A stretch of DNA of 64,000 nt from Vulcanimicrobiota bacterium (GTDB lineage: Bacteria; Vulcanimicrobiota; Vulcanimicrobiia; Vulcanimicrobiales; Vulcanimicrobiaceae): NCBI GenBank assembly GCA_963820825.1, contig CAWGBN010000002.1, positions 160,001 through 224,000 on the forward strand, in the 5' to 3' direction. The notes under the pieces are model-generated. The model searched no databases. It had not been told where the DNA came from and was given only the letters and a program-made list of their open reading frames with translations. A program made the translations under genes and the position numbers. Positions 934-18,037 of this stretch are shown one piece after another; position 1 is the stretch's first letter; the number at the start of each line of letters is the position of its first letter.

Positions 934-1122
934 ATGAAGCTGTTCCTCGAGATTCTGCTCTCAATCGTCCTGCACCCGATCGCAATGATCCTCATGTGGA
1001 TCAATCTCTTGGCGCGCGGCGACCTCACGACGTTTCAAAAAGTCGTGTGGTTCGTGGTGAGTATCATTTGGGGGCTCGGACCGATTCTCTACCTCTTGGT
1101 AGCAGAAGGCTCGCTGTGGTAA
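934..1122 (+). CDS. Small two-TM membrane protein (PLDc N-terminal-like)
   Basis: 62 aa hydrophobic; KVVWFVVSIIWGLGPILYLL resembles PLDc_N. Confidence 0.65.
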   Translation: MKLFLEILLSIVLHPIAMILMWINLLARGDLTTFQKVVWFVVSIIWGLGPILYLLVAEGSLW

Positions 1123-1150
1123 GCGAGCCTTCCGACTTTTTGCCGACGGG

Positions 1151-2065: not shown

Positions 2066-2171
2066 ATGATCCTATTATAGCGCCACGCTCGCTTCAGCGT
2101 GGTTAGAATCCGTGCAAAAAGATGCTCTCCCGCTCTACCGGCCAAGCAAACGTGAAGATCCTCGAGAATAC

Positions 2172-2202
2172 TTGACTCCGACGTTACGTCAGGGGCTAGG
2201 CT
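2172..2202 (+). promoter_or_regulatory. MerR-type promoter with 19-bp spacer and internal dyad
   Basis: TTGACT(2172-2177)-19 bp-TAGGCT(2197-2202); dyad GACGT-T-ACGTC in spacer; directly upstream of a MerR gene. Confidence 0.8.
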
Positions 2203-2220
2203 TGCCGTTGGAGAGGAGCG

Positions 2221-2985
2221 ATGAAGACCGCCATTGCCAATCTACGCCGCGTCAAGGAGTTCGCAAGCGAAGCGGGCGTTACCGTTCGTACGCTGCACCT
2301 CTACGATCGGCTTGGTTTGCTCAAACCCGCGGCCCTGAGCGAATCGGGCTACCGGATGTACGGAGAGGCCGAGCTCGAGCGCCTCGAGCATATTTTGGCG
2401 CTGCGTTTCGTCGGATTCAACCTCGACCAAATCAAGGAGCTGCTCGGAGGATCGCACCGGCCGCTGCTCGTCGCCCTGCGCATGCAGCGAGCGGTCGTCG
2501 CCCGGCAGAAGCGCCGGCTCGAGTCGGCTTTGGCTGCAATCGATGAGGCCGAGCGCGCCCTGTCGCGCGAAGAGCCGGTCGATCTTTGGACGACGCTCCG
2601 TTTCGTGATGGAGTCTTTCAAAATGCAAAACGATTGGGAGTGGACGCAGAAGTATTACTCGAAGGAGGCGCTGCAGCAACTCGAAGAGGTCCGCCAACAG
2701 GTCTCGCCCGATGCAATTGCGCAAGCGCAGCGCGATTGGAGCGTTCTGCTCGCCGAGGTCGAGGAGGCCGTGGCACGCGGCATCGCTCCATCGAGCGACG
2801 AGGCGCAAGCTCTGGCAACGCGATGGCGCGCGCTGCTGCGCCAGTTCACGCAAAGCAACGCCGAAATTCAGAACGGCCTGAATCGCCTTTGGTCGGATCC
2901 CTCCAACTGGCCGGCCGATTTCAAAAGGCCTTGGAGCGACGCCGCCGATGCATTTATCAAAGCAACAATGAGCTGCGCGTCGTAA
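2221..2985 (+). CDS. MerR-family regulator with TipAS antibiotic-recognition domain (TipA/Mta-like)
   Basis: GVTVRTLHLYDRLGLLKP...SGYRMY HTH; C-terminal PSSDEAQALATRW...FT. Confidence 0.92.
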   Translation: MKTAIANLRRVKEFASEAGVTVRTLHLYDRLGLLKPAALSESGYRMYGEAELERLEHILALRFVGFNLDQIKELLGGSHRPLLVALRMQRAVVARQKRRLESALAAIDEAERALSREEPVDLWTTLRFVMESFKMQNDWEWTQKYYSKEALQQLEEVRQQVSPDAIAQAQRDWSVLLAEVEEAVARGIAPSSDEAQALATRWRALLRQFTQSNAEIQNGLNRLWSDPSNWPADFKRPWSDAADAFIKATMSCAS

Positions 2986-3009
2986 CGCAGCGAATATGTG
3001 AAAAGGGAG

Positions 3010-3084
3010 TGGAGCCGTCGATGGGGATTGAACCCATGGCCTCGTCCTTACCAAGGACGTGCTCTACCACTGAGCTACGACGGC
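3010..3084 (-). tRNA. tRNA-Thr(GGU)
   Basis: Reverse complement GCCGTCGTAGCTCAGTGGTAGAGCACGTCCTTGGTAAGGACG...GTTCAATCCCCATCGACGGCTCCA; CCA encoded. Confidence 0.97.
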
Positions 3085-3190
3085 GCTTTTGGTCCGAGAG
3101 CGTTACTCCGCCGGCGGCTTCGGTCCCTACTGCAAGCTAGGGTGCCCCGGCTTACGGGGCGAAAACGCTTGCGATAGGAGGTTTTCTTTA

Positions 3191-3535
3191 ATGCTTCTTT
3201 CTTCCACGATGTTACGCCGGATGGGGATCGCCGTTGCCGCATTCGCGGTACTCGGCGCGACCGCGCTTCCGGGAGCGGCGCAGATGCGTCAGCAAATGGC
3301 CGACAAAGTCGCGACTCAGGCTGCCAACTCGTTCGTGAGCAAGATTAACGGCGAAAGCTGTTCCGATTTTGCAAATACGATGGCGCAGATGAAGCATAAG
3401 TCGGGCGCGACGCCGAGCCCGATGTCCGCGAAACTCAAGGGCAACTCGCAGGCGCGGACGGACTTCGTCAATATCGTCGCCGGGCCGTTGCTCAACAAGA
3501 TGATCGACTGCAACATGATGCCGGGAGGAATGTAG
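3191..3535 (+). CDS. Small secreted hypothetical protein (two Cys)
   Basis: AGGAGG RBS at 3176-3181 before ATG 3191; signal peptide; abuts next gene. Confidence 0.75.
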   Translation: MLLSSTMLRRMGIAVAAFAVLGATALPGAAQMRQQMADKVATQAANSFVSKINGESCSDFANTMAQMKHKSGATPSPMSAKLKGNSQARTDFVNIVAGPLLNKMIDCNMMPGGM

Positions 3536-3868
3536 ATGCGACGCGTTCTTCTCGCCGCGTTGCTTGCGTGCGTTCCGGCGATCGCCGTCGCGGCGGCGCT
3601 CGCGCCTTCGACGATTCTCGCGAATCCGTCGAGCTACGATGGAAAGAGCGTCACCGTCACCGGTAAGGTCGCGCACTTCCAATCCTCGAGCACGCCGATG
3701 GGTCCGGTTGCCGGATTTCAGCTCTGCGATTCCAAGTGCGTCGTGGTGATCGACAAAACGAATCAGTCGCGCAGCGACGGCGCGACCGCAACGGTCAGCG
3801 GCACCTTCCACGTCAGCTTCAAGGGTCCGCGAAAGACCTTCAGCAACGCCATCGTCGTCGGGCGATAG
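3536..3868 (+). CDS. Small secreted protein, probable OB-fold
   Basis: Signal peptide; ILANPSSYDGKSVTVTGKV...ATVSGTF pattern. Confidence 0.75.
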   Translation: MRRVLLAALLACVPAIAVAAALAPSTILANPSSYDGKSVTVTGKVAHFQSSSTPMGPVAGFQLCDSKCVVVIDKTNQSRSDGATATVSGTFHVSFKGPRKTFSNAIVVGR

Positions 3869-3871
3869 CGC

Positions 3872-4828
3872 TTAGCGGCTGGGGAGCGCGCTCACGGTAA
3901 CCCCGTAGAGCTCCTCCCCGTCGAAACGCGAGAGCTGGCCGACGGGATAGCCGCCGGATGGATAGTTCCAGAACCCGATCTTGTTAACGTTCTTCCCGGT
4001 GCCGAACGGCATGATCAGCCTCCCGCCGTTGAGCCAAAACTCGGCGCCCTCAGGCGGCTGCCGGACCGGGCCTTCGAGCGTCACGGTCTCCGCCAGCGTC
4101 GCAATCCTCTTCCGCGGCTCGATCTTGAGCCGATAGACGACGCCCGGAGAGGTGTAGTCGCCCACGGCGAGATCGGTGCCGTCCCATTGTATGTTTCCGG
4201 GCAACCCGATTGCCGCTTTGACGGCGAGCCGCACAAAGTGAACGCCGGCGTAGATGAGCTCGGAGAGCCGGAAGTGATCGCCGTCGTGCAGATGATAACC
4301 GTCGACGAAGAGATCGCCCTTCGCATCGTAGGCACATGCGAACGGATAGTCAACCGCAGCGGCATAGGTCTGCGGTTCGCCGCCGGCGGCCGGATAGATC
4401 ACCACCGTGGGCGGCTCGGTATTCACGACGGCAAGACTTCCGGTTAGAGGATCGACCGAACAGCCGCGCGGCTCGGCGTTGGGATCGTCGAGCACGTCGA
4501 TCGGCGTCGTACCACCGTGCGCGTACTCGACCACCTGATCGTGCCCGGCATTGAAGTTCATCACCCAGACGTTCCCGCTCGCGTCGCTGCAGAGCCCGAG
4601 CGGATATTTATCGTCGGCGAGCGTCTGAACGAGATCGCCCGCGGGATAGGTGAAGACGAAGATCTTGCCGGCCTTCCAATCGCTGGCGTAGAGCAGATCG
4701 CTGCTCGAGCTCGTTGCGGGAGCGGAGCGGCTCTGACTCGCTGCGATCTGCACCTGCGCTCCGGCGCATCCCGCGAGCACGAATGCGGCAGTGCTGACGT
4801 AGAGCGCATATCGCCTCACGCTGCGCAT
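3872..4828 (-). CDS. Lipoprotein with NHL/beta-propeller-like repeats
   Basis: Lipobox LAGC; repeated GLCSDASGNVWV / GCSVDPLTGSLAV / ACAYDAKGDLFV blades; start moved to ATG 4828 because the ORF-track start overlaps tRNA-Gly. Confidence 0.8.
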   Translation of the reverse strand: MRSVRRYALYVSTAAFVLAGCAGAQVQIAASQSRSAPATSSSSDLLYASDWKAGKIFVFTYPAGDLVQTLADDKYPLGLCSDASGNVWVMNFNAGHDQVVEYAHGGTTPIDVLDDPNAEPRGCSVDPLTGSLAVVNTEPPTVVIYPAAGGEPQTYAAAVDYPFACAYDAKGDLFVDGYHLHDGDHFRLSELIYAGVHFVRLAVKAAIGLPGNIQWDGTDLAVGDYTSPGVVYRLKIEPRKRIATLAETVTLEGPVRQPPEGAEFWLNGGRLIMPFGTGKNVNKIGFWNYPSGGYPVGQLSRFDGEELYGVTVSALPSR

Positions 4829-4858
4829 TTCGACACGGCTTACGGGTTTAACTAGCGA

Positions 4859-4932
4859 TGGAGCGGGCGGCGGGAATCGAACCCGCGACTCTTGCTTGGA
4901 AGGCAAGGGCATTACCACTATGCAACGCCCGC
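4859..4932 (-). tRNA. tRNA-Gly(UCC)
   Basis: GCGGGCGTTGCATAGTGGTAATGCCCTTGCCTTCCAAGCAAG...GGTTCGATTCCCGCCGCCCGCTCCA. Confidence 0.96.
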
Positions 4933-5007
4933 AACGCTCGGCGACCTCTTTACCGCAGCCGGTCGCGCAACACCTACGGCGCGGGGTAAAGCCGACGCGG
5001 GAATGTC

Positions 5008-6027
5008 CTAGGGGACGTAGTTGTTCGTGTCTACGGCACTGGACGGCAGCGTCAGGCCGTTGGCGGCGCCGAGCGTCGCGATGAGCGTGCCGCTCGGATA
5101 CTCGAGCACTTGGACGTCGCCGGCGCCGAGATCGGTCACGTAGGCTCGATTATTTCTCCGGTTGATCGTCACGTGGAAGGGATCGTAATAGCCCGACCCC
5201 AGCGTGTGCGTAATCGTCTGATAGGGCGGCGCAATGACGTCTACGGTCGCCGAGAGCTGATCGCAGACGATGAGATCCTTCTGCTTATCGAGCGCCATCC
5301 CGCCGATGAACCCGAGCGGCAGCGGAAGTAAGATTCCGTTGCAGCCCCTCAAACCGTGCTGATACTCGGTAATGTATCCAAGCGAACCGGAGTTATAGCC
5401 GAGGAAGACGTCGCCGCGCTGATCGACGGCAACGCCCTCGGCCGCACCGCCCGGCGAGCAGTGTGCGATCACCGTGTTACTCTTTTGCGCGTACTCGTTG
5501 ACGAAACCGTGACCGTGCGGATAGGCATAGTCGGCTTCATAGACGTTGCCGTTGAAATCGGTCGTCACAGCGACCGGATCCATCATGCGAGCGTTATACG
5601 TAAAGGTCAGCTGCGAGGGCGGTTGGTACTGCGTGATGTCGTTACTCGCGTAGTTTGCCACGTACAGGCCGAAGGTGTCGAGCCAATTGCCGTCGGGAGC
5701 ACTGATCCCGTCGGTGATCTCTCCCTTGTTCGCCCAGGAGTTATTCTTGAGGATCTCAACGGCGTTGCTGGTAAAATCGTCGACGAAGAGCGACGCGCCG
5801 GCGTTCGGCATCACACCGGCTCGCGAAGCCGTTCCCAGCCGTACGAGCGCGAGAAACTTCGGAGCGACGCCGGAACGAGCGGCATCGGCGAGCGCACCCG
5901 GCGCACCAACACGCGCACTCTGCGCCGCGGAGCCGGTCCATTGCGTAGCGGCGCCCGAGCAGCCCGCAAGGACGGCGAAGGCGGTTATTGAAGCCGCGGC
6001 TACGACGGAAAATGAATACTTCTGCAC
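5008..6027 (-). CDS. Lipoprotein with NHL/beta-propeller-like repeats
   Basis: GTG 6027 with AGGAG RBS; lipobox LAGC; blades PVAVTTDFNGNVYEAD, GVAVDQRGDVF, GMALDKQKDLIVCD. Confidence 0.8.
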   Translation of the reverse strand: MQKYSFSVVAAASITAFAVLAGCSGAATQWTGSAAQSARVGAPGALADAARSGVAPKFLALVRLGTASRAGVMPNAGASLFVDDFTSNAVEILKNNSWANKGEITDGISAPDGNWLDTFGLYVANYASNDITQYQPPSQLTFTYNARMMDPVAVTTDFNGNVYEADYAYPHGHGFVNEYAQKSNTVIAHCSPGGAAEGVAVDQRGDVFLGYNSGSLGYITEYQHGLRGCNGILLPLPLGFIGGMALDKQKDLIVCDQLSATVDVIAPPYQTITHTLGSGYYDPFHVTINRRNNRAYVTDLGAGDVQVLEYPSGTLIATLGAANGLTLPSSAVDTNNYVP

Positions 6028-6114
6028 GAGATAACTCCTGCAAGCTTCAGACCGCCCGGAAACTACCCGGCGGGCTGCGATGCGTTCGTCTTTGCGCGAA
6101 GAGCTCCTCGGTCG

Positions 6115-6660
6115 ATGCCCGCGTTTGAGGTGCGCCCCGCGTCGCGCGACGACGTGGAGACCATCCGCCAAATCTATAACGAAGGCGTCGAGGATCGCGT
6201 CGCGACGCTCGATCGCGAGCCGAAATCGCCCGATGAGATGGCGCAATGGTGGGCGGATCATGACGAGCGCCATGCGGTGCTCGTTGCGCTCGATGCAGGC
6301 GAGGTCGTCGGTTGGGCCTCGCTCAATCGGTTCTCTGCGCGCTGCGCGCACGCGAACATTGCCGACCTCTCCGTCTACGTCAAGCGCAGCGAACGCGGCC
6401 GGGGCGTCGGTCGCGAGTTGCTGAAGCGGCTCGTGGAACGCGCGACGCGCGAGGGTTTTCATAAAATCGTTCTTCACGCATTGGACTGCAACGAATCCGG
6501 AAAGCGGCTCTACCGCGGCAGCGGATTCATCGAGGTCGGCGTCTTCAGAGAACATGGGATGATCGACGGAGCATACGTGGACGTCGTCGCGATGGAGCGG
6601 CTCCTGCGATCGTCTTCGCCGGAGGCGGATCTGGGCAGGGCTGGATTCGAACCAGCGTAG
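6115..6660 (+). CDS. GNAT N-acetyltransferase (phosphinothricin/arsinothricin ArsN1-like)
   Basis: IYNEGVEDRVATL, VVGWASL, DLSVYV..RGRGVG, EVGVFREHG..DVVAME. Confidence 0.88.
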   Translation: MPAFEVRPASRDDVETIRQIYNEGVEDRVATLDREPKSPDEMAQWWADHDERHAVLVALDAGEVVGWASLNRFSARCAHANIADLSVYVKRSERGRGVGRELLKRLVERATREGFHKIVLHALDCNESGKRLYRGSGFIEVGVFREHGMIDGAYVDVVAMERLLRSSSPEADLGRAGFEPA

Positions 6661-6716
6661 CGCCTTCGCGCGCCAGATTTACAGTCTGGTGCCATTAACC
6701 ACTCGGCCACCTACCC
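6632..6716 (-). tRNA. tRNA-Tyr(GUA), CCA not encoded
   Basis: GGGTAGGTGGCCGAGTGGTTAATGGCACCAGACTGTAAATCTGG-long V arm-GCTGGTTCGAATCCAGCCCTGCCCA. Confidence 0.96.
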
Positions 6717-6738
6717 ATAGGCCTTTCGCCTTTTCCCG

Positions 6739-6767
6739 TTGTTCTTGGGGGCTCAGCAGGGTACGAT
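6739..6767 (+). promoter_or_regulatory. Candidate sigma70 promoter
   Basis: TTGTTC-17 bp-TACGAT upstream of a foldable leader and the 6910 lipoprotein. Confidence 0.4.
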
Positions 6768-6909
6768 AGGGAGGCTACGGGCTCCTCGGGTTGGTGATGA
6801 CGGTCACCCGCAAAACCTCTCCTCATCGACTTCTCATGTGACCCGCCGTTCGAGTAGCCTACCATGGGAACTGTAGCAAACTCGTCTACGACCCTCGGGA
6901 GTACCTAGG

Positions 6910-7812
6910 ATGGCTCGCTTAGCAGCCCTTGCGGTTGCCGCCCTGACCGGTCTCCTCCTCGCCGGATGCAGCGGGGGTAGTTTTGCTCAGGCCGGGCTCT
7001 CACTGCCCGCCGCCTCAGGCGATGGACTTCAGACCGTGAGCGACGCAGCCGATGCCCTCGACGGGCACCGCAGCTCCGCGACGGCCGACGCCAAGGCCGC
7101 GATCGCCGTGACCGATGCGCTCGGCTCGTTCGTCCGCGACATTGCTGCGGCCCAGCGTTCGTTCGGCCAGGCGGGCACGCAACAGGCGAGGCTTCGCTCG
7201 AATCTCCACTCGATTCGGCAGTACACCGTCGAGGTCAACGGCCGGCGGATCGCCGCCGGATCGGAGCTCATCATGCGGTCGGGGTTGGGCGAGTACTGCC
7301 AGAACTCCGCGGGCTACAGCGTCAGCGGCATTCCTTCGCTCGACGCGACCTTCGGGTGGCAGAGCGGCGCGCTGATCGGCGGCTCCCGGAAGACCGATTC
7401 GCGCGGGGGATCGACCTGGTCGGCAAATGCCAGCGGCGCCGTGGTCCAGGGTGCGATCGGTACCCTATCGATCGCTCGCGGGGGCGCGAGCGCGTCGTGC
7501 CCGATGAGCGCACCGGCCTTCGTTCTGAAGGGCGGGACGGCAGAGAACGCATTTTCCCTTCCGCTCTCGATGGCATTCCGTCGCGGCGACCTGAGCAATC
7601 TCAGCGTCGTCAACGGCCGTTTCGCAAACGGCGAGAACCTCGAGGTCACGACGCGGCCGAACCATCAGCCAGCCGAGGTCGACGGCGTCGTCGCGAAGGG
7701 GCGCACGCAAGTTGCGACCTTCCGCGCCAACGCGTCGGGTTACGGAACGCTGACGATCACCAGTACCGGCGCGCAATACGTCATCGCCGACTGGATCGTC
7801 GTCGGAACTTAA
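6910..7812 (+). CDS. Hypothetical lipoprotein
   Basis: Lipobox LAGC, GGGAG RBS, 300 aa Gly/Ser/Ala-rich. Confidence 0.8.
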   Translation: MARLAALAVAALTGLLLAGCSGGSFAQAGLSLPAASGDGLQTVSDAADALDGHRSSATADAKAAIAVTDALGSFVRDIAAAQRSFGQAGTQQARLRSNLHSIRQYTVEVNGRRIAAGSELIMRSGLGEYCQNSAGYSVSGIPSLDATFGWQSGALIGGSRKTDSRGGSTWSANASGAVVQGAIGTLSIARGGASASCPMSAPAFVLKGGTAENAFSLPLSMAFRRGDLSNLSVVNGRFANGENLEVTTRPNHQPAEVDGVVAKGRTQVATFRANASGYGTLTITSTGAQYVIADWIVVGT

Positions 7813-7830
7813 ACTCCTAACGGCACCGCC

Positions 7831-8187
7831 TTAGTCAGGCGCGACGCACGCGACGCGCTTGCCGGAGGCAAGCGTTACGTGTTTGGCCATGACGGTACTC
7901 TTCGAGGCGTTTACCGTCACGCTCGCACTCTTGCTGCCGCTGGCAAGCATAATCGTTTGGGCGTTGGGGTTTGCATCGTCGATGTCGGAATCGACGCCCG
8001 GGCCCTCGGCCACGCGCAGGTGTCCCAGCGTCAGTGAGATCGCCGCGAGCGTCCCGGCCGGACACGACGAAAGCGCCTGCTTAAAGCCGATGCTCGACGG
8101 CTGCACCGTCACGCTCGACGAGGCGGCGGTGGCACCCAGCCCGACGACGAGCGATAGAACGGCAAACGGTCTTATATCCATCTTCAT
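7831..8187 (-). CDS. Small secreted hypothetical protein
   Basis: MKMDIRPFAVLSLVVGLGATAAS signal peptide; two Cys. Confidence 0.65.
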   Translation of the reverse strand: MKMDIRPFAVLSLVVGLGATAASSSVTVQPSSIGFKQALSSCPAGTLAAISLTLGHLRVAEGPGVDSDIDDANPNAQTIMLASGSKSASVTVNASKSTVMAKHVTLASGKRVACVAPD

Positions 8188-8244
8188 AACGATGCAGTGC
8201 TTTTGCGCGTCACTCCGAGGGCCCTCTCGCCGGGCTTCGAAGTC

Positions 8245-9036
8245 ATGCGGGTGTTTCTTACGCAAGAACTGCATGCACTCATTACGCGCGCCGAGATCGC
8301 CGGGATCCGAAGCAACGTTGCATCGATCCAACGACTCTACCCGCAGACGCATGCCGAGAGCATCGACGTCGCCGACGGAGTCGCCGCCTTTGCCGGCATC
8401 GATTCGCCTCTTTCGAAAGCCTTCGGCATCGGCGCGTTCGAGCCCGTAACCGGCGAGCAGATCGCGAGCGTTTCGGAGTTCTTCGAATCGCGTAACGTCG
8501 TGCCGCGCGTTTTCGTGACGCCGCTGAGCGCCCCGACGCTGGCCCGGGCATTGGCCGCCGCCGGCTATGCGCCCGTCGAGTACGACAGCGTAATGGTCGC
8601 CGTCGCGCCGGAACGTCACGGTCATCGCGACGCTCGAATCGCCGTTGCTGCTGATTTAAAGGCTTGGGCTCGCGCTTCCGTTGAGGGCTTCATCGCGCGA
8701 GACCGCATACATGACGACGCGCTCGCCCGGATCATCGGATCGTCGCAGGACGTCGTTCCACTCGAAGCACGCCAGAACGGTGAAATCGTCGCTACGGCGG
8801 CGTACAGCATGCGCGGCGAGTGTTCCGGGCTCTTCGCCGGATCGACGCTGCGCGAGTTTCGCAACCGCGGTTGGCAGCTCGCCATGATACGCGATCGCAT
8901 CGCTCGCGCACGCGACGCGGGCGCACGCGTTATATTTGCCGCCACAGCCCCCGCCAGCGTTTCCGAGCGCAACTTTCATCGCGCCGGTTTCGTCACGCTG
9001 TACACGCGTGCACGATGGGATCGCATACACGCGTAA
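8245..9036 (+). CDS. GNAT-family acetyltransferase
   Basis: FAGIDSPLSKAFGIG N-domain; GSTLREFRNRGWQ and SVSERNFHRAGF acetyl-CoA motifs. Confidence 0.85.
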   Translation: MRVFLTQELHALITRAEIAGIRSNVASIQRLYPQTHAESIDVADGVAAFAGIDSPLSKAFGIGAFEPVTGEQIASVSEFFESRNVVPRVFVTPLSAPTLARALAAAGYAPVEYDSVMVAVAPERHGHRDARIAVAADLKAWARASVEGFIARDRIHDDALARIIGSSQDVVPLEARQNGEIVATAAYSMRGECSGLFAGSTLREFRNRGWQLAMIRDRIARARDAGARVIFAATAPASVSERNFHRAGFVTLYTRARWDRIHA

Positions 9037-9042
9037 ACCACA

Positions 9043-9071
9043 CTGCCATACATATGGCATAGCGGTATCAT
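9043..9071 (+). promoter_or_regulatory. Candidate promoter with overlapping palindrome upstream of the HNH gene
   Basis: CTGCCA-17 bp-TATCAT; perfect inverted repeat TGCCATA-CA-TATGGCA at 9044-9059. Confidence 0.45.
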
Positions 9072-9082
9072 AGTATTGGCGC

Positions 9083-9592
9083 ATGAATGCAAGGAAGTTT
9101 CGCGGCTGGTGCCTGACTGATTGCGGTAACGCGATTAAACACGGGGCAACAAAATATTGCTCATTTAGATGCCTACAAGTGGCACGCAGTCAGGAACGCG
9201 TGCAGACCCTGGAGTCCGGGTTTTACGTTGCCCTTCAGGCAACGCGGTTTCTTCGCAGATACTTGATCGAACGTCTCGGCGAGAAGCGCACACGGTGCGG
9301 CTGGGCCGAGCGACATCCCACAACCAGAAACGTTCCTATCGAAGTCGAACACATCGACGGAAACTGGCAAAACTATAGGCTCGAAAATCTGACCTTGCTC
9401 TGCCCGAATTGTCATGCTCTAACCCCGACGTTCCGCAGCCTCAACCGGGGTCGAGGCAGGGCTCATCGACTCGGTGGCAGAGCGAACCCGATTAACGCTA
9501 GCGGCCAACCTGAAAGGCGGCGCGAGCGGGCGTCTAGGCAAAAGGTGTTCGAGGGACCCCTGATGCAACTGAATCTACTACCGCCGACGTAG
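9083..9592 (+). CDS. HNH endonuclease (Zn-finger type), possibly degenerate
   Basis: KYCSFRC; EVEHIDGNWQNYRLENLTLLCPNCHALTPT HNH motif; visibly AT-richer than flanks. Confidence 0.88.
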   Translation: MNARKFRGWCLTDCGNAIKHGATKYCSFRCLQVARSQERVQTLESGFYVALQATRFLRRYLIERLGEKRTRCGWAERHPTTRNVPIEVEHIDGNWQNYRLENLTLLCPNCHALTPTFRSLNRGRGRAHRLGGRANPINASGQPERRRERASRQKVFEGPLMQLNLLPPT

Positions 9593-9667
9593 CCAAGTGG
9601 TTGAAGGCAATTGATTTGTAATCAATTCCCAGAAATGGGCACGTGGGTTCGAATCCCACCGTCGGCT
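9583..9667 (+). tRNA. tRNA-Thr(UGU) with atypical long variable arm; CCA not encoded
   Basis: GCCGACG/CGTCGGC acceptor, GCC-AAGTGGTTGAA-GGC D arm, ATTGA-TTTGTAA-TCAAT anticodon arm, CCCA-GAAA-TGGG V arm, GTGGG-TTCGAAT-CCCAC T arm. Confidence 0.9.
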
Positions 9668-9689
9668 CCGTTCGTTTTTTTGAAAGTAC

Positions 9690-10079
9690 ATGCAAAACGT
9701 AAATCCAAAGTGGTTGAAGTCGGGGCTCGTGCTCGTATGCGAGCGCTGCTTCAAAGAGCGTATCCCCGAAGAAGATCCCGACGCCGCCGAACGGATCGGC
9801 GACTTCCATCTTCGCAACTGGTTAAAAGATCGGCTCAAAGAAGACGGGCGATGGGGACCGATTCGTGCGATCAGTACGAGCTGCATGGACGTCTGTGCAC
9901 GCGGGCGGGTAACGCTCTGCATCGAGCCGCAAGACGGCGAAACGACGGTTATGGTCGTCGACCCCGTCGCCGATCGCGAAGCGATCTATCGCGAGATCGT
10001 CGCGCGGCTAAACGGTGGCGACAACGGCGCGTACCAGGGCGGCGCGGGCGAGGAGCCGAGTCGAGTCGAGCGTCGGTAA
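9690..10079 (+). CDS. Thioredoxin-like (2Fe-2S) ferredoxin-domain protein
   Basis: VLVCERC ... TSCMDVC cysteine pattern. Confidence 0.7.
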   Translation: MQNVNPKWLKSGLVLVCERCFKERIPEEDPDAAERIGDFHLRNWLKDRLKEDGRWGPIRAISTSCMDVCARGRVTLCIEPQDGETTVMVVDPVADREAIYREIVARLNGGDNGAYQGGAGEEPSRVERR

Positions 10080-10709
10080 CGATGAGTTCTCGTCGTTGAC
10101 GATGAGCGGGATCTCGGTGCAGCCGAGAACGACCGCGTCGCAGCCGGCGTCCTTCATCCGCTCGATCACGCGTTGGAAATACGCGGCCGCTTCCGGCTTG
10201 AAGGCGCCGTAAACCAAGTCGTCCATGATGATTCGGTTGATTTCAGCGCGCTCGTCCGAAGTCGGAAGCACGTACTCCCTTCCACGCGCCGACAACTTCT
10301 CCGGATAGACGTCGCTTTCGACGAGCCAGCGAGTCCCGGTCAGCCCAACGCGCCGAAAGCCGCGGCGCACCGCTTCGTCGGCGACGACATCGGCGATATG
10401 CAGCCACGGCAGCGGGGACCGCGATTCGATTGGCGGCAGCGCTTGGTGGATCGTATTGTCGGGACAGATGAGAAAGTCGGCGCCGATCGCCGCCAGCTTG
10501 CGGGCGGAATCCAGCATGATCTGGCCGACGCCCGGCCAGTCATCGCGATCCATGCACGCTTCGTACTCCGCGAACGACGGCGAGTGCATTGAAATCTCCG
10601 GGTGCGCGTGCGCGCCCAACAACTGGACACCTTCCGAACAAATCGTTTGGTAGCAGAGCGCGGCGCCCGGGGCCGAACACGCCACGATGCCGATATGGAG
10701 CGGTTTAAT
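10008..10709 (-). CDS. Aspartate/glutamate racemase family protein (start probably ATT 10709; first canonical start GTG 10685)
   Basis: HIGIVACSAPGAALCY, ICPDNTIH, VLGCTEIPL, LDSTRLLA. Confidence 0.9.
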   Translation of the reverse strand: MKPLHIGIVACSAPGAALCYQTICSEGVQLLGAHAHPEISMHSPSFAEYEACMDRDDWPGVGQIMLDSARKLAAIGADFLICPDNTIHQALPPIESRSPLPWLHIADVVADEAVRRGFRRVGLTGTRWLVESDVYPEKLSARGREYVLPTSDERAEINRIIMDDLVYGAFKPEAAAYFQRVIERMKDAGCDAVVLGCTEIPLIVNDENSSLPTLDSTRLLARAALVRAVVATV

Positions 10710-10732
10710 CGGACGTTCCGGGAAGCGGAACT

Positions 10733-10758
10733 GCCGCGCTAACTAAGGTTAGCGCGGC
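10733..10758. terminator. Perfect 11-bp hairpin downstream of sigH (terminator-like, no clear U tract)
   Basis: GCCGCGCTAAC-TAAG-GTTAGCGCGGC. Confidence 0.45.
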
Positions 10759-10790
10759 TGCCGCGAGGCAAAGGATTGCGTCATGCTCGT

Positions 10791-10829
10791 CCTTCGAGAC
10801 GCGCGCCGCGCGCGCTCCTCAGGATGACA
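10791..10829. repeat. REP-like palindromic element (intergenic)
   Basis: CCTTCGAGACGCGCGCCGCGCGCGCTCCTCAGGATGACA; related copies elsewhere in window. Confidence 0.75.
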
Positions 10830-10841
10830 CATGGCGGCGAG

Positions 10842-11490
10842 CTACTGGAACTCGAACTCGGCGAGATTCTTTTCGATCTTCCGCTTGACGCGCTGGAGCG
10901 CGTTGTCGATGGACTTCACGTGACGCCCGAGATCGCGCGCCATCTCCTGATAGCTCTTGCCCTCGAGATACGATTCGAGCACCTGCGACTCGAGCTCCGA
11001 GAGATTCTCGTCGAATTCGCTGGCGGATGTCGTCGGAGACCTCCTGCGTTACGACGAGCTCTTCGGGGTCGGAGGTCTTCTGCGAAGCCATCACGTCGAG
11101 GAGCGTGCGTTCGCTGTCCTCGTCGTAGATCGGCTTGTTCAGCGAGATGTACTGATTGAGCGGAATATGCTTCTGCCGGGTCGCGGTTTTGATCGCGGTG
11201 ATGATCTGCCGCGTAATGCAGAGCTCGGCGAACGCGCGGAAGCTGGAAAGCTTGTCGGCCTTGAAGTCGCGCACCGCCTTGTAGAGACCGATCATCCCCT
11301 CTTGGATGATATCCTCGCGGTCGGCCCCGATCAGGAAGTAGCTCTTGGCCTTGATCCGGACAAAATTCTTGTACTTGTTGAGCAGGTACTCCATCGCAAG
11401 GTTATCACCGGTCTTGGCGATAGCGACCAAGTCCTCGTCGACTCTCTGCTGATATTCCACGCCATCCGAGACTGGATGGGTCATTGCCAT
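10842..11490 (-). CDS. sigH: RNA polymerase sigma factor SigH (Spo0H-type); +1 frameshift near 11011, probably a sequence error
   Basis: KSYFLIGADREDIIQEGMIGLYKAVRDF...TRQKHIPLN; after shift ENLSELE..YLEGKSYQEMA..HVKSIDNALQRVKRK*. Confidence 0.92.
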
Positions 11491-11567
11491 AATTTTCTGT
11501 CTGCCTCGTGGGTAAGACGAGCCGCATGCGCAGGCCGCAGCCCGTCGGGCGCGGCACGTCGAGGCTA

Positions 11568-11598
11568 AGTATATAGGAGGGTCCCCCTCCCCCGTCAA
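11568..11598 (-). promoter_or_regulatory. Candidate sigma70 promoter for sigH
   Basis: TTGACG (11598-11593) and TATACT (11573-11568); spacer 19 bp with two homopolymer runs. Confidence 0.45.
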
Positions 11599-12353
11599 GG
11601 ACGAAGCGAGCACTCTCCTTGTCTTAAGGCCTCGTAAATGAGAATAGCGGCGGCCACCGAGGCGTTGAGCGAGGCAACCCGCCCCCGCATCGGCAGTCTG
11701 ACCAGGTAGTCGCACTCGCGCCGGACGAGCTGGGAGAGCCCCGTATCCTCCGCCCCGATCACCAGGGCGAGTGGGCGCCCCAGGTCGGCCTTAGCGAGCT
11801 CTACCGCCTCGGGACCCGGGTCGGCGCCGACCACCCAGAGCCCGGCCTTCTTCAACGTCCGGATGGCATCGGCGATATTGGCGACGCGCGCGATCGGCAG
11901 ATGCGCGGCCGCCCCCGCGGCGGCTTTGCGCACCGTCGCGTTGACCCCGGCCGACCGGCGGTCGGGCAACACGAGTCCGGCCGCGCCGGCCGCCTCGGCG
12001 GTGCGAATGATCGCGCCGACATTATGCGGATCGGTTAAATGGTCGAGCACCACGACCAGACGCGGCACGCCGCCGCCGTCATTGCGGCGGGCGAGGATCT
12101 CGGGCAACGAAACGTATTCGAAGGGCGGACCGACGGCGACCACGCCTTGATGCGCTTTGAAGGGCAGTCGTTCGAAGAACGTGCGCCGTTCGAAACGCAC
12201 CGGAACCGCGCGCTCCTTCGCTTGCGCGAGCAGCGCTCGCAACACGTTGTCCTTGCTGCGATCCATGGCAACGTGCACGACGCGCAGCGGTTCGCTCGCC
12301 GCAAGCGCCTCACCGACCGTATGGACTCCGTAGATGAGATCGTCGAAATCCAT
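11595..12353 (-). CDS. rlmB: 23S rRNA (G2251-2'-O)-methyltransferase
   Basis: IYGVH, HQGVVA, LDHLTDPHNVGAIIRTA, IGAEDTG, VASLNASVA; between cysS and sigH. Confidence 0.93.
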   Translation of the reverse strand: MDFDDLIYGVHTVGEALAASEPLRVVHVAMDRSKDNVLRALLAQAKERAVPVRFERRTFFERLPFKAHQGVVAVGPPFEYVSLPEILARRNDGGGVPRLVVVLDHLTDPHNVGAIIRTAEAAGAAGLVLPDRRSAGVNATVRKAAAGAAAHLPIARVANIADAIRTLKKAGLWVVGADPGPEAVELAKADLGRPLALVIGAEDTGLSQLVRRECDYLVRLPMRGRVASLNASVAAAILIYEALRQGECSLRP

Positions 12354-12360
12354 CCGTCGC

Positions 12361-12398
12361 CCTTGCGCAGCACCGCTTCGCGGCGCGCTCGGGGTGAC
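12361..12398. repeat. Degenerate REP-like element between cysS and rlmB
   Basis: CCTTGCGCAGCACCGCTTCGCGGCGCGCTCGGGGTGAC resembles CCTTCG...CGCTCAGGATGAC. Confidence 0.5.
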
Positions 12399-12445
12399 CG
12401 CGTGGCGGCCGCGCTTCTTTACGAAACCGCCGGGGCCGCGCTTCT

Positions 12446-13897
12446 TTACAGGGCGGCGACGTTCCACGTCGTGCCTTCCTTGGAATCCTTGACTTCGACG
12501 CCGCAGCGCGCGAGCGCGTCGCGAAACCGATCGGAGGCCGCCCAATCTTTTGCGCGACGCGCTTCGTCGCGCAGCGCGATCACGCGTGCGATCGCCTCTT
12601 CCGCCGATGCAGCGCCGATGGAGTGCCCAGCCGCTTCGATGCCGGCATCGCGCAGCGCCGCTTGCAGCCGCACGACGAAATCGAGAGCGAGTTCAGCGCG
12701 CGGCTCCTCGAGCCACGAATCGTTTGGCGCGACGCCGAGAATGCCGAGCCAATAGGCGAGATCCTCTCGGCTCGGCGTCGAGCGATCGACGGCGTCGTAG
12801 AGCACCGCGAGCGCGGCCGCCGTATTCATGTCGTCGTCAAGCGCCGCTTCCATCCGTTCGTCGAGCTCGGGCGACGCAACCGATTCGCCGTCGGTTGCCG
12901 GCGCGAGGCTTCGATATGCAGCCCTGATGCGCCCGAGGCCGAGCGCCGCCGCGGCGATCGAATCTTCGGTGAAGTTCATCACCTTTCGATAGCCCGTTTG
13001 CAGAAAGAGCCAGCGAAGGGCCTGCGGATCGTGCCGCTGCAATAGATCCGAGAGCGGTTCGAAATTGCCGAGCGACTTCGACATCTTGCGGCTGTCGAAG
13101 AGCAAGAGCCCGCCGTGAACCCAGACGTTCGCCATCGGCGGGCGCGCCATCAGCGGCTCGCTCTGAGCGATCTCGTTCTCGTGATGCGGAAAGATCAAAT
13201 CCGCACCGCCGCCGTGAATGTCGAAGCCGATCCCGCCCGGATCGAGCAACGCGCGCGCCATCGCCGAGCACTCGATGTGCCAGCCCGGCCGCCCGTCGCC
13301 GTACGGCTCGAACCCCCAGCGCGGTTCGCCAGGTTTGGCAAACTTCCAGAGTGCAAAATCGAGGGGATCTTCCTTATGCTCGTCGACTTCGATGCGCGCA
13401 CCCGCCTCGAGCTCATCGACGTTGCGGTTGGCGAGGCGGCCGTAGCGCGCAAAGGTTGAGACGCGATAGTAGATGCCGTCCTGTGCGGGATAGGCGTGAC
13501 CGCCGGCGATCAGCTCCGCAATCATCGTTTGAATCGGCTCGATATACCGGGTCGCGTAGGGTTCGTGATCGTAGGCGAGCACGCCGAGCTTGCGCATCGA
13601 ATCGGTGAACTCCGCATAGTACCGCTCGACGATATCGTGATAGTCTTCGCCCGTCTCTTTTGCCTCGTTGATGCTGCGGTCGTCGATGTCAGTGACGTTC
13701 TGCACGTACGTCACCTTGTAGCCGCGATGCATCAAGTAGCGGCGGAGTACGTCGAAGAAGAGAAACGAGCGGGCGTGGCCGAGGTGCGCCTGCGCCGAGG
13801 GCGTCAGCCCGCAGACGTAGATGCGGACGTCGCGGTCGCGCAACGGCTCGAACGCCTCGACGCTGCGCGTGCGAGTGTTATAAAGCTTGATCGGCAC
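12446..13897 (-). CDS. cysS: Cysteine--tRNA ligase
   Basis: YVCGLT, HLGH, GRPGWHIECSAM, DIHGGGADLIFPHHENE, KMSKS. Confidence 0.97.
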   Translation of the reverse strand: MPIKLYNTRTRSVEAFEPLRDRDVRIYVCGLTPSAQAHLGHARSFLFFDVLRRYLMHRGYKVTYVQNVTDIDDRSINEAKETGEDYHDIVERYYAEFTDSMRKLGVLAYDHEPYATRYIEPIQTMIAELIAGGHAYPAQDGIYYRVSTFARYGRLANRNVDELEAGARIEVDEHKEDPLDFALWKFAKPGEPRWGFEPYGDGRPGWHIECSAMARALLDPGGIGFDIHGGGADLIFPHHENEIAQSEPLMARPPMANVWVHGGLLLFDSRKMSKSLGNFEPLSDLLQRHDPQALRWLFLQTGYRKVMNFTEDSIAAAALGLGRIRAAYRSLAPATDGESVASPELDERMEAALDDDMNTAAALAVLYDAVDRSTPSREDLAYWLGILGVAPNDSWLEEPRAELALDFVVRLQAALRDAGIEAAGHSIGAASAEEAIARVIALRDEARRAKDWAASDRFRDALARCGVEVKDSKEGTTWNVAAL

Positions 13898-13900
13898 CGC

Positions 13901-14638
13901 TCAGATAACCCAGCTCCAGGCTTCGTCTTCGGTCGCCTCGCCGTGTTCGAGCTCGCTCAAGCGCCGTTCGAGCTGCGCCAACTGCTGCTGCAGGCGCACG
14001 ATCGCGTCGGTCGTTGGGTCGGGCATGTCGACCTGCGGGCGTTCCGGGACGACGCGAATCGGCTTGCCGTCCTGCATCACGATGCGCGCCGGAACTCCGA
14101 CCACGGTTGCATTCGCCGGAACGTCTTTCACCACGACCGATCCGCCGCCGACTCTCGCGTTGTCGCCGAGAACGATCGCACCGAGCACGCTCGAGTTCAC
14201 GCCGACCACTACGTTACGCCCGAGCGTGGGATGACGCTTGCCGTGCGAGAGGCTCGTGCCTCCCAGCGTAACGCCTTGATAGATCGTGCATCCGTCGCCG
14301 ACCTCGGCCGTCTCGCCGATCACCACGCCGGAACCGTGGTCTATGAAGATGCCCTTCCCGATCGTCGCGCCGGGATGGATCTCGATCTGGGTGAAAAAGC
14401 GCGCGACGTTGGCGAAGAGACGCGGCAGAATCGGTATCTGCGCGCGGTGCAGCGCATGGTTGATCCGATGCGCGACGAGCGCGTGGAAACCGGGGTACGA
14501 GAGCACGACGTCCAGCCAGCCGCGCGCCGCCGGATCGCGTTCGAGGGGCGCGCGCAGGTCGGCCAGAACGTCGTCGAGCCAACTCCCGCCTTGAGCCGGT
14601 TGAGGGGTCATCGCCAACAGTTTAACCCGGGCGGTCAA
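13901..14638 (-). CDS. cysE: Serine O-acetyltransferase
   Basis: RDPAA, IEIHPGATIG, FIDHGSGVVIGET, KRHPTLG, VVGVPAR. Confidence 0.96.
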   Translation of the reverse strand: MTARVKLLAMTPQPAQGGSWLDDVLADLRAPLERDPAARGWLDVVLSYPGFHALVAHRINHALHRAQIPILPRLFANVARFFTQIEIHPGATIGKGIFIDHGSGVVIGETAEVGDGCTIYQGVTLGGTSLSHGKRHPTLGRNVVVGVNSSVLGAIVLGDNARVGGGSVVVKDVPANATVVGVPARIVMQDGKPIRVVPERPQVDMPDPTTDAIVRLQQQLAQLERRLSELEHGEATEDEAWSWVI

Positions 14639-14658
14639 TCAAGGGCTGCATCCCACCC

Positions 14659-15135
14659 TTACTGCGACGCGAGCAGCGCGACGGCGTAGACCGCAAGACC
14701 GGTTCCGTCGCCGGTATAGCCCATGCCCTCGCTGCTCTTGGCCTTTACGCTTACCGCGCCGGCGGGCAGCCCAAGACGTTGCGCGACGTTTGCGCGGATG
14801 CGTTCGATGAACGGCGCGAGTTTCGGCCGTTCGACGACGATCGTTGCGTCGACGTTGCCGATCGAGTAGCCGGCGTCGCGAACGGCCGCTGCGCACTGCG
14901 CGAGCAGCTCCATCGAATCGGCATCTTTCCAGCGCGCGTCGGTGTCGGGAAATCGCGCGCCGAGATCGCCGAGCGCGGCCGCGCCGAGCAATGCATCGGC
15001 GAGCGCGTGCGCGAGAACGTCGCCGTCGGAGTGCCCGAGCGGTCCGCGCTCGAAGGGAATGCGCACGCCACCCAAGACCAGCGGCCGCCCCTCGGCGAGA
15101 CGGTGCGCGTCGAATCCGTGCCCCACGCGCATCAT
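14659..15135 (-). CDS. ispF: 2-C-methyl-D-erythritol 2,4-cyclodiphosphate synthase
   Basis: MRVGHGFDAH, GHSDGDVLAHA, LGDLG..FPD, SVKAKSSEGMG; ATGA overlap with ispD stop. Confidence 0.95.
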   Translation of the reverse strand: MMRVGHGFDAHRLAEGRPLVLGGVRIPFERGPLGHSDGDVLAHALADALLGAAALGDLGARFPDTDARWKDADSMELLAQCAAAVRDAGYSIGNVDATIVVERPKLAPFIERIRANVAQRLGLPAGAVSVKAKSSEGMGYTGDGTGLAVYAVALLASQ

Positions 15136-15810
15136 GCTTGCAGGATCGCGGCGGCGCGTTCGACGTCGCCCGGCAGCGTTACTTTGAAGTTCTCGCTCGT
15201 CGCGGCAACGACGACGACCTCGATGCCGGCGCGCTCGAGCAACGCCGCGTCGTCGGTCGCTTCGACTCCCTCGCGCGAAGCGCGTTCGTGCGCTTCGCGC
15301 AGATTCTGGGAGCATCGCGAACTGCGGCGTCTGCGCGGCCCACAACCTTGCGCGATCGAGCGTCGCCTCGACGCGCCGCGATGCCGTTTCGACCCGCTTG
15401 ATCGTGTCGACGACCGGCGCTGCGAGCAGCGACGCGCGCCCCGGGCGCACCTCACTCATTCCGGCACGCACGTCCTCGGCCGTCACCAGCGGCCGCGCGC
15501 CGTCGTGCACGAGCACGGCGTCGCAGGCGTCCGAGACGGCCCGCACGCCTTCGTAGACGCTCTGCTGCCGGGTCGCGCCGCCCCGCACGACGCGGTTCGT
15601 GTGCTTCGCGGCGAGCTCGGCGAGGAGCGCGCGCATCGGCTCGAGCGACTCGGGCTCGGTCGCGACCACGATCTCCTCAACCTCCGCCATCGCCGCAAGA
15701 GTTCGCATCGACCAGCCGACCATCGGCATTCCGGCGAGTTCGATGAACTGCTTCGGCCGGCCGAATCGTGTGCCGTGGCCGGCCGCCACGATCACGGCCG
15801 CCCATTTCAA
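15132..15810 (-). CDS. ispD: MEP cytidylyltransferase; +1 frameshift near 15308, probably a sequence error
   Basis: AAGHGTRFGRPKQF, GGATRQQSV, VLVHDGARP, AQTPQ; second frame ATDDAALLE..NFKVTLPGD. Confidence 0.92.
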
Positions 15811-16856
15811 GAGGCGACGCCTTCGCGCTTCGGCCGCGCGAAGATCATTCGTCCGGCAACGGTCTGCAGCACGCTGGTGACGATCACGTCGGTCTCTTCG
15901 CCGATCAGTCGCCGCCCGTGCTCGACGACGATCATCGTGCCGTCCTCGAGATAACCGACGCCTTGATGGAACTCTTTGCCCTCGCGAATCACCGCCACAT
16001 GCAGCTCTTCGCCGGGGAGGACGACGGGCTTTACCGCATTGGCGAGCTCGTTGACGTTGAGCACCGCGACGCCTTCGACGTGAGCGATCCGATTCAAGTT
16101 ATAATCGTTGGTCACCAGCTTCGCGCCGAGTTCCTGCGCGAGACGAACGAGCCGCGCGTCGACGTTTCCCGGCGCCATATCGGAGAAATCGCGCTCGCTG
16201 ATCTCGACGGTGGCGAGCTCTTGCAAGCGGCTGAGTACGTCGAATCCCCGCCGGCCGCGCATGCGTTTGAGCGGATCGACGGAGTCGGAGATTGCCTGGA
16301 GCTCGCGCAGAACGAAGCGCGGCACGATCAGCGCACCTTCGAGAAATCCGCTCTCGACGATCTCGACGATGCGTCCGTCGACGATCGTGGACGTGTCGAC
16401 GAGTTTGGCGATCCCGCCGCTCGCGCCTCCGGCCGCAGTTCGCGGAACCGGAACGATACGAATCTTCGCGCCGATCCGCGCGCCTAAGTACGCGGCAAAG
16501 ATTGCGACGATGAGATAGAGGACGATTGCGACGTAAGTCCCGGCACGCCCGAGATCGGAGATGAGCTCGAAGACGATGCCCTTGATGAGAAATGCGATCA
16601 GCAGACCGACGACGAGGCCGACCGCGCCGCCGGCAATCTCCGCGGGCGTGAGCCGTTCCATCGCGCCCTCCGCCTGGCGCAACTGATTCTCGAAGAGCGC
16701 CTGCGCGAGCGGCGCGAGCAGCGCGCCGACGATCGCTCCGACGACGGGTGAGAGAATCAGACACGCAACTTGCAACGCTTCGTTCGCAAAATGCGGTGAG
16801 AGAAGGCTGAAATAGGCTTCCCGGCCGAGCAGAAAGCCGGCAACCCCGAAGACCAC
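15807..16856 (-). CDS. PIN/TRAM-domain membrane protein (YacL-like); true start probably slightly upstream
   Basis: TM helices, DTSTIVDGRI, RGRRGFDVL, TNDYNL, QGVGYLEDGTMIVVE, VLQTVAGRMIFA. Confidence 0.92.
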   Translation of the reverse strand: MVFGVAGFLLGREAYFSLLSPHFANEALQVACLILSPVVGAIVGALLAPLAQALFENQLRQAEGAMERLTPAEIAGGAVGLVVGLLIAFLIKGIVFELISDLGRAGTYVAIVLYLIVAIFAAYLGARIGAKIRIVPVPRTAAGGASGGIAKLVDTSTIVDGRIVEIVESGFLEGALIVPRFVLRELQAISDSVDPLKRMRGRRGFDVLSRLQELATVEISERDFSDMAPGNVDARLVRLAQELGAKLVTNDYNLNRIAHVEGVAVLNVNELANAVKPVVLPGEELHVAVIREGKEFHQGVGYLEDGTMIVVEHGRRLIGEETDVIVTSVLQTVAGRMIFARPKREGVAS

Positions 16857-16900
16857 GACGAAGGCGACGCGCAGGACCGTTTCCGAGAGCGCGTTAGGTG

Positions 16901-18020: not shown

Positions 18021-18037
18021 GGCGACCCGCGGCCGGC

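Follow-up and report, generated by a model that had tools for sequence, protein, structure and literature searches.

How does a nuclease gene come to end inside a tRNA gene, and has the one shaped the other? The question is raised by a window of 64,000 nucleotides from a soil bacterium of the Vulcanimicrobiota (contig CAWGBN010000002.1, positions 160,001–224,000; genome labelled G000, an assembly of 2.98 Mb, 85% complete), in which the last 10 nucleotides of an HNH endonuclease open reading frame, its TAG stop included, are also positions 1–10 of a tRNA-Thr(UGU) with a long variable arm. An earlier note on this DNA had taken the pair for a selfish element whose nuclease replaced the resident tRNA with a cleavage-resistant form. 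The overlapping genes themselves are confirmed by the ORF call, ARAGORN and Rfam (Table 1).

The nuclease gene and its tRNA

Table 1 Features of the HNH–tRNA-Thr(UGU) module, in window coordinates.
Feature	Position	Strand	Remark
Palindromic box TGCCA-N6-TGGCA	9044..9059	.	Candidate DNA-damage regulator site (WYL-activator-like)
−10-like hexamer TAGTAT	9071..9076	+	11 nt past the box, 6 nt before the ATG
HNH endonuclease gene	9083..9592	+	169 aa; PHROGs phrog_10822, E 2e-18
AGGT-N19-CAACT motif in HNH tail	9543..9570	+	Probable tRNA promoter (inferred)
ORF–tRNA overlap, 10 nt	9583..9592	+	Stop is U8-A9-G10 of the tRNA
tRNA-Thr(UGU)	9583..9667	+	ARAGORN; Rfam RF00005, 66.8 bits
Anticodon arm of tRNA gene	9610..9626	+	Candidate recognition or cut site of the nuclease
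T7 run	9675..9681	+	Not conserved, probably incidental

The HNH protein consists of an N-terminal cysteine-rich, zinc-ribbon-like part, a CxxC/HNH/CxxH core and a non-conserved tail. Both Pfam HNH and HNH_3 score under cut-off, and H90, N102 and H111 are invariant across the 16 aligned rows, the G000 copy included. Residue 69 of that copy (codon 9287–9289) is Arg, where the 15 other rows have the first Cys of the core zinc site; since the first core zinc ligand is replaced, the G000 copy is probably impaired and on its way out. Differences at codon positions 1, 2 and 3 of the core, 0.25, 0.17 and 0.59, indicate that it is under purifying selection. With an AlphaFold model of mean pLDDT 61.7, Foldseek gave no match at E ≤ 0.001 (best EcoKMcrA, E 0.12), and the best hit of a PDB profile search had an E of 0.15; beyond an HNH fold, these searches are uninformative.

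The nuclease is of a homing family and sits in an intron-less gene, and Rfam finds tRNA-Thr(UGU) uninterrupted. We rejected an RNA-guided HNH of the IscB/HEARO type: only residues 55–112 match IscB, at 23.5 bits against a cut-off of 175, and an Rfam scan of window positions 1–20000 returned tRNAs only, with no structured guide RNA. We also rejected an integrase-driven island at a tRNA gene, there being no integrase among the scanned neighbour genes, no bounding repeat in window 6000–11000 and no att-like duplicated tRNA end elsewhere in the genome, where 16-nt matches hit tRNA-Cys and tRNA-Ser only. Around the module, an ancestral sigH-Thr-Tyr-Gly-Thr tRNA cluster is spread across about 9 kb (window 2221–12545), its spacers holding variable small genes (GNATs, NHL-repeat proteins, a racemase) that differ among relatives.

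The tRNA is the sole Thr(UGU) found in the assembly. It has a class II shape, with a 3-bp D stem, the anticodon at 9617–9619 and a variable region at 9627–9642 whose 16 nt and 4-bp stem exceed the 10 nt with a stem that mark class II; no CCA is encoded. Its fold has a z-score of −3.4, and none of 200 shuffles is equally stable.

Among 17 genus ORFs that run through the HNH motif, the stop lies at +10 of the tRNA in 8, deeper in the tRNA in 5 and upstream of it in 4, and overlap occurs in 23 of the 65 cellular loci with a downstream tRNA (among the best 80 of 580 matches). The HNH tail has no codon-position bias. A loose AGGT-N19-CAAC pattern is matched at 31 of 36 loci (21 of the 23 that have the HNH, 10 of the 13 that lack it) and at 0.5% of random positions. 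The tRNA probably has its own promoter inside the HNH tail, with the ORF reading through to the first stop it meets. The suggestion that 5′ processing of the tRNA removes the stop codon and so limits the nuclease fails as a general control, the stop being so variably placed; for the overlapping copies, stop loss by processing is possible. The T-run that the earlier note had placed after the tRNA exists, but a run of at least 5 T within 30 nt of the tRNA end occurs in just 2 of 36 genus loci, and a terminator scan found none at this one.

A nuclease family tied to tRNA-Thr

A search of 61 genomes gave HNH homologues in 32 of the 36 other genomes of the genus. All 31 excised homologue loci have a same-strand tRNA just downstream, Thr(UGU) in 23 and Gln(CUG) in 8; the Gln(CUG)-linked proteins form a separate subfamily, also carried by G000. 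Of 37 genus genomes, 36 yielded a Thr(UGU); the unpublished genomes G048 and G059 enter only these raw tallies of Thr(UGU) and homologue searches. The closest named homologues among the matches listed are Eremiobacterota records, many labelled Ca. Cybelea.

The linkage with tRNA holds far outside the genus. Within the best 80 of 580 cellular matches, a set that overlaps the genus set, a Thr tRNA is adjacent in 71, and in 25 of the 31 most distant loci, which come from cyanobacteria, Chloroflexota, CPR and others. Of the viral matches (best 80 of 571), 42 have a Thr tRNA next to them, upstream or downstream, and 41 have Thr(UGU), which accounts for just 50 of the 501 tRNAs in those loci. Family members flank tRNA-Thr on one side or the other, across several phyla as well as in phages; one jumbo-phage homologue has no annotated tRNA within 1.5 kb. 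At one phage locus, the HNH gene is followed at once by a Thr(UGU)-like gene whose anticodon loop is interrupted by a 22-nt insertion (L140:2406-2503), and an intact Thr(UGU) lies upstream of the same HNH. A literature search that covered few subscription papers and no supplements returned nothing on this HNH family, the long-arm tRNA-Thr(UGU) or a GCCA-N6-TGGC motif, and the accessible parts of PMC7609411, PMC5389517 and PMC7344957 do not mention them.

Variability of tRNA-Thr(UGU)

The 36 genus genomes hold 33 distinct alleles of tRNA-Thr(UGU), with a mean pairwise difference of 0.222. For comparison tRNAs, taken from 10 to 31 genomes each, the values are 0.001–0.042 for eight non-Thr tRNAs (Asp 0.001, Arg 0.006, Gly 0.009, Tyr 0.028, Phe 0.042), 0.083 for Thr(CGU) with 4 alleles and 0.111 for Thr(GGU); the neighbouring tRNA-Gly is 25-fold less divergent than tRNA-Thr(UGU). 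The acceptor stem and anticodon loop are nearly fixed, the loop having only 2 variants among the 36 genomes, and the D arm, anticodon stem and variable arm vary, with 20 variants of the 5′ strand of the anticodon stem alone. In the 16 long-arm alleles, 98.7% of cells are paired, and covariation is seen in 5/5 anticodon-stem and 4/4 variable-stem pairs. Because the alleles keep acceptor stem, anticodon loop and pairing, the RNA should still work, and a variable body between fixed acceptor and anticodon fits the Thr identity elements, acceptor-stem pairs and anticodon, given in the available text of PMC9976931. The Thr(CGU) loci carry no HNH motif that we could find despite their difference of 0.083, and tolerance by ThrRS therefore contributes to the variation.

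The long arm is present in 19 of the 23 genus genomes that have the HNH and 11 of the 13 that lack it, in 9 of 39 distinct viral alleles and in none of 22 alleles from more distant cells. With its frequency so similar whether or not the nuclease is present, the long arm is a class of alleles rather than a badge of the HNH, and short and long (class II) bodies are alternative alleles. The claim that the long arm is the cleavage-resistant variant brought by the nuclease thus finds no support, and tRNA distance does not follow HNH-core distance (see below). Thirteen genomes from another family, in which this query found no Thr-linked HNH, have a Thr(UGU) whose 3′ half is short and hardly varies. 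If the long arm was copied from a paralogous host tRNA, no donor stands out: the longest shared stretch, 19 nt with Ser(UGA), is no more than is shared with several other tRNAs. Two further forms may be recorded. In G041, a genome of the same order, the long-arm tRNA-Thr(UGU) is of another kind: its D arm is Tyr-like, and it adjoins sigH and lacks the HNH (L047); in G036, the tRNA-Thr has an extra anticodon-arm base and the HNH is frameshifted (L021:1799-1875), which may be decay or an assembly error.

Presence, exchange and decay within the genus

An HNH gene stands at Thr(UGU) in 23 of 36 genus genomes and is absent from 13, at the same syntenic site wherever flanks are visible. No HNH-free relative carries the G000 tRNA unchanged; a close one, G019, differs at 8 of 85 positions. 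The tRNA-Thr(UGU) lies on the + strand and three nearby tRNAs (Thr GGU, Gly and Tyr) on the − strand, as the earlier note had observed. This inversion is real but not specific to the nuclease: tRNA-Thr(UGU) is opposed to Tyr-Gly in the genus with or without the HNH, and sigH and the tRNA, which point the same way in three same-order outgroups, are opposed in the genus, again with or without it. Because site and orientation are the same in both states, the inversion is a feature of the clade, and we rejected it as a mark of an element.

Mapped on an unrooted rpoB tree of 28 genus genomes, the HNH switches between present and absent 6 times, gains and losses being undistinguished. Tests on the HNH core (22 rows, G016 left out) reject 4 of 7 host groupings, among them the rpoB sisters G002+G013 (p-AU 0.0016) and G035+G036 (p-AU 4e-6); G028+G014, G000+G030+G005 and G033+G035+G036 are not rejected. 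Sisters at 94–95% rpoB identity are about 80–97% identical in shared flanks and 37–70% over most of the HNH. In G002/G013 the swapped tract runs from immediately past the upstream palindrome to a point short of the T arm, and in G035/G036 from within the 5′ part of the HNH to the T arm; such tracts are bounded by homologous DNA, with the flanking genes unswapped. G018 and G022 share the entire module vertically, at 89–98% identity.

Over 18 genomes, tRNA distance correlates neither with HNH-core distance (partial r −0.04, p 0.60) nor with rpoB distance (partial r 0.05, p 0.30), and does correlate with distance in the adjoining tail/promoter segment (partial r 0.34, p 0.0015). No simple pairing of one enzyme with one immune allele therefore holds, and a tRNA that tracks just the adjoining tail suggests many short tracts. 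Six of the 23 HNH copies are broken by frameshift or deletion, and G012 holds a clear internal-deletion relic. Genus counts overstate the evidence throughout, because kin are not independent.

Filled and empty sites in T5-like phages

In phage HdH2, an HNH homologue abuts tRNA-Thr and is 41% identical to the G000 protein over residues 19–122. A megablast search placed the HdH2-type gene in 10 records, 9 of which include the tRNA as well. All 9 share one anticodon stem, ACGGT/ACCGT, a rare form present in 14 records overall, against 302 for the common stem GTTGC/GCATC. These counts include duplicate records; the common-stem records are presumably all missing from the megablast HNH list, and a diverged HNH would escape megablast. 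T5-like phages have both filled and empty HNH sites at tRNA-Thr. A long-arm Thr(UGU) is a third T5-like allele, in 100 records, and occupies the same site in the one record opened: in phage HildyBeyeler, the 87-nt gene (L454:468-554) stands where relatives have one of 75 nt.

Two HNH-free phages combine the upstream DNA and acceptor of the empty site with the HNH-type anticodon arm, and in a third the tRNA gene is truncated after such an arm. Between HNH-plus and HNH-minus phages, the rest of the tRNA is nearly identical and the anticodon arm differs. That the arm alone differs, or is converted, points to it as the target of the nuclease. The association of phage HNH and stem may nevertheless come from one founding event.

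An upstream palindrome shared with recA and ssb

The segment 9037–9082 has a GC content of 0.48, against 0.56 for the HNH ORF and 0.64 for the window, and in this the earlier description of an AT-rich upstream segment stands. The promoter predicted there by a scan is probably in the wrong register, since the conserved −10-like element is the TAGTAT of Table 1. A complete palindrome precedes the HNH in 21 of 23 HNH-plus genus loci, the start codon lying 39 nt from its start in 20, and TANNNT is present at the same spacing in all 20; from the −10 position we infer an HNH mRNA that is leaderless or nearly so. At the corresponding position, the box is absent from 12 of 13 HNH-minus loci. It is found in 42 of the top 49 cellular loci and 1 of the next 31 (best 80 of 580) and in none of the 80 viral loci (best 80 of 571).

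A matrix trained on 40 HNH boxes only was scanned over G000. Its top 7 hits lie at the Thr HNH, lexA/yneA, recA, a nuclease-helicase gene, the Gln HNH, a transposase-like relic and ssb (recA, ssb and the transposase being identified from their sequence). Across genomes, the box precedes recA in 5 of 6 and lies between lexA and yneA in 4 of 9; it was not found in one genome of another family that was searched, and some matches precede genes without a clear repair role. The putative GCCA-N6-TGGC regulon of yneA/lexA, recA, ssb and the nuclease-helicase gene has its sites at G000:C8:228124, C7:81097, C8:174109 and C6:656196, and at L376; in relatives it includes DnaQ-like and TnpB-like ORFs.

A second box, GAAC-N4-GTTY, which we take to be the Gram-positive LexA box, precedes lexA in 9 of 9 genomes, neither HNH gene of G000, and recA in 0 of 6. 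Because this distinct box sits at lexA, and is missing at HNH and recA, the palindrome was rejected as a LexA box. The WYL activators DdaA, DriD and PafBC respond to DNA damage, and their sites, as described in the available text of the two reports, resemble the box here in shape and fixed spacing (PMC12392091; PMC8635444). The present motif is GCCA-N6-TGGC, 11 nt before TANNNT; as in a WYL regulon, it keeps a fixed distance to the −10 and is common to recA and ssb. Its binding protein is a candidate: G000 has two WYL proteins, and the one at C2 ~229.05-230.03 kb was chosen by matching distribution, with a close orthologue in 12/12 genus, 4/4 same-order and 0/11 other-family genomes. The box is probably bound by a WYL-type activator, which would make the HNH gene inducible by DNA damage, and the palindrome, which the earlier note had passed over, is a better candidate for HNH control than the stop-codon overlap.

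Other tRNA-linked nucleases behind the same palindrome

The box also precedes nucleases at other tRNAs. It is present in 5 of 8 loci of the Gln(CUG) HNH, and in G000 itself (C2:81153-81954; L002, L357) the order is box, a 198-aa HNH of the other subfamily, tRNA-Gln(CUG) and tRNA-Glu(CUC); tandem HNH pairs occupy the Gln(CUG) site in L025, L026 and L031. A PD-(D/E)XK gene of PF11645, a family whose prototype is I-Ssp6803I, lies before Thr(GGU) and behind the box in 4 of 5 genomes searched, and is not in G000. The gene or a relic of it stands just before Thr(GGU) in L257, L263 and L436-L439, and in L263 the ORF runs into the tRNA. An endonuclease VII gene (PF02945) follows Phe(GAA), behind the box, in 6 of 30 loci (L266, L273, L276, L283, L284, L290). 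Both Thr(GGU) and Phe belong to the more variable tRNAs, and Gln(CUG) looks variable. A TnpB-like ORF and a transposase-like relic, both named by eye, also lie behind the box, so mobile genes use it too. Apart from these, a tRNA-Leu(UAA) of G000 contains a 260-nt, group I intron-like insertion (G000:C9:8556-8901; ARAGORN intron mode).

Comparison with known systems

The closest parallel is T4 SegB, a free-standing GIY-YIG homing endonuclease in a tRNA cluster that cuts inside tRNA genes and converts the region (PMC2330249; PMC13096335). As far as the available text of these papers goes, both are intron-less nuclease genes beside tRNAs, optional among relatives; SegB is phage-borne and reads a T-arm motif of many tRNAs in a dispensable cluster (PMC2330249; PMC13096335), whereas the HNH is chromosomal as well as phage-borne, is tied to tRNA-Thr at a single-copy host gene, has evidence pointing to the anticodon arm and carries a damage-type host promoter. 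By this comparison, the HNH module would work like SegB but differ in fold, target, single-copy chromosomal setting and promoter.

In mycobacteria, tRNA array units reportedly have an adjoining HNH gene, proposed to spread tRNAs. The Anabaena HNH all8564 adjoins a long tRNA array and is co-induced with it under stress, and HNH genes of this type beside arrays were proposed to spread tRNAs, in the accessible part of the report (PMC8421152). Both cases share with ours an HNH next to bacterial tRNAs; on the same partial account, the arrays are accessory, multi-gene, horizontally transferred and linked to translational stress (PMC8421152), whereas here a single core tRNA is edited in place.

Group I intron-encoded PF11645 nucleases target the tRNA anticodon region, where the evidence on the HNH also points, and in this genus a free-standing PF11645 gene lies before Thr(GGU) behind the same box. 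As opposed to intron homing, tRNA-Thr(UGU) has no intron, and protection would need a change in the tRNA sequence rather than an interrupted site.

Proposed mechanism and alternatives

We consider it likely, from the comparisons above, that the HNH is a free-standing, damage-inducible homing endonuclease lodged at the host's single chromosomal tRNA-Thr(UGU) and cutting near its anticodon arm. Through the box common to recA and ssb, the gene would be switched on by a DNA-damage regulator, probably of WYL type, under conditions in which the cell contains recombination proteins together with single-stranded or incoming DNA. The protein would nick or cut a tRNA-Thr allele at the DNA level, in or close to the anticodon arm, and repair from the other allele would copy the HNH with the neighbouring tRNA arms, or just a short tract, crossing over within the conserved box or 5′ end at one border and within the T arm at the other. 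In the alleles compared, acceptor stem, anticodon loop and pairing are kept while the DNA sequence changes, and HNH copies decay, are lost and are replaced. Homing needs two alleles in one cell, and would thus require some route of DNA transfer.

Three comparative signs of homing are present, namely optional presence, a gene history discordant with the host's, and decay and loss. The tracts bounded by homologous DNA and the arm-only tracts in two phages would fit co-conversion. For immunity of a nuclease's own allele, the phage stem link speaks in favour, but the genus has no correlation between tRNA and HNH core. Of the earlier idea of a selfish HNH with a replaced tRNA, the tie to tRNA-Thr and the spread with allele replacement survive; the long arm as the resistant form does not.

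The host might instead keep the nuclease in its damage regulon so that tRNA alleles escape tRNA-targeting enzymes or integrating elements, the gene spreading through benefit and not through drive. A box common to recA, ssb and yneA/lexA, purifying selection on the core and four nuclease–tRNA pairs in one genus would suit such a diversifier, as would the role of tRNA variable loops as targets of defence nucleases in the available text of PMC13096335. We nevertheless find it improbable, for the HNH is absent from 13 and broken in 6 of 36 genomes, the anticodon loop has just two variants, and the box, by eye, also serves a TnpB-like ORF and a transposase-like relic.

Still less probable is a tRNase that cuts tRNA-Thr as RNA, in a competitor or in the host, with the allele next to it protected, as toxin and antidote or in superinfection exclusion. 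The tight link to one isoacceptor would fit it, and Septu, according to the accessible text of PMC13096335, needs an HNH motif and leads to cleavage of the tRNA-Tyr variable loop. The chromosomal allele, however, replaces rather than supplements the only Thr(UGU) gene, so that the cell has no target left; the swaps take the form of DNA tracts joined within homologous sequence, short converted tracts turn up in HNH-free phages, and the HNH is lost while the allele persists.

Equally remote is a passenger with a single arrival next to the tRNA and no effect on it, the variation arising because ThrRS reads only acceptor stem and anticodon (the identity elements in the available part of PMC9976931) in a region that recombines often: Thr(CGU) is variable too and the tRNA/HNH-core correlation is nil, yet family members flank tRNA-Thr on either side in several phyla and phages, the 3′ half of Thr(UGU) is nearly constant in the 13 other-family genomes in which this query found no Thr-linked HNH, flanking genes are unswapped, and neither integrase nor att-like repeat was found.

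Implications

Homing by the HNH would account for the 33 alleles in 36 genomes at one tRNA whose neighbours barely change, and for the coming and going of a class II arm on a threonine tRNA. Documented cases of homing at tRNA genes concern phage clusters (SegB) and introns; the gene involved here is apparently a single-copy chromosomal tRNA. T5-like phages, some of them grown on E. coli, hold three natural tRNA-Thr alleles with and without the nuclease. The shared box suggests how the gene may spare its host, being expressed only when the recombination proteins are, and marks out in an uncultured phylum what looks like a DNA-damage regulon not reported before.

More tentatively, and with the odds rather against it, a LexA-independent activator of Eremiobacterota that co-induces recA and at least four unrelated nucleases, each stationed at its own core tRNA gene, may drive tRNA diversification, the four in that reading being two HNH, one PD-(D/E)XK and one endonuclease VII. 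If so, their cutting would make these tRNA genes the fastest-changing in the genus, with tRNA-Thr flipping between class I and class II, and the regulon would amount to a damage-triggered tRNA gene drive or diversification of possible use to the host against tRNA-targeting enemies.
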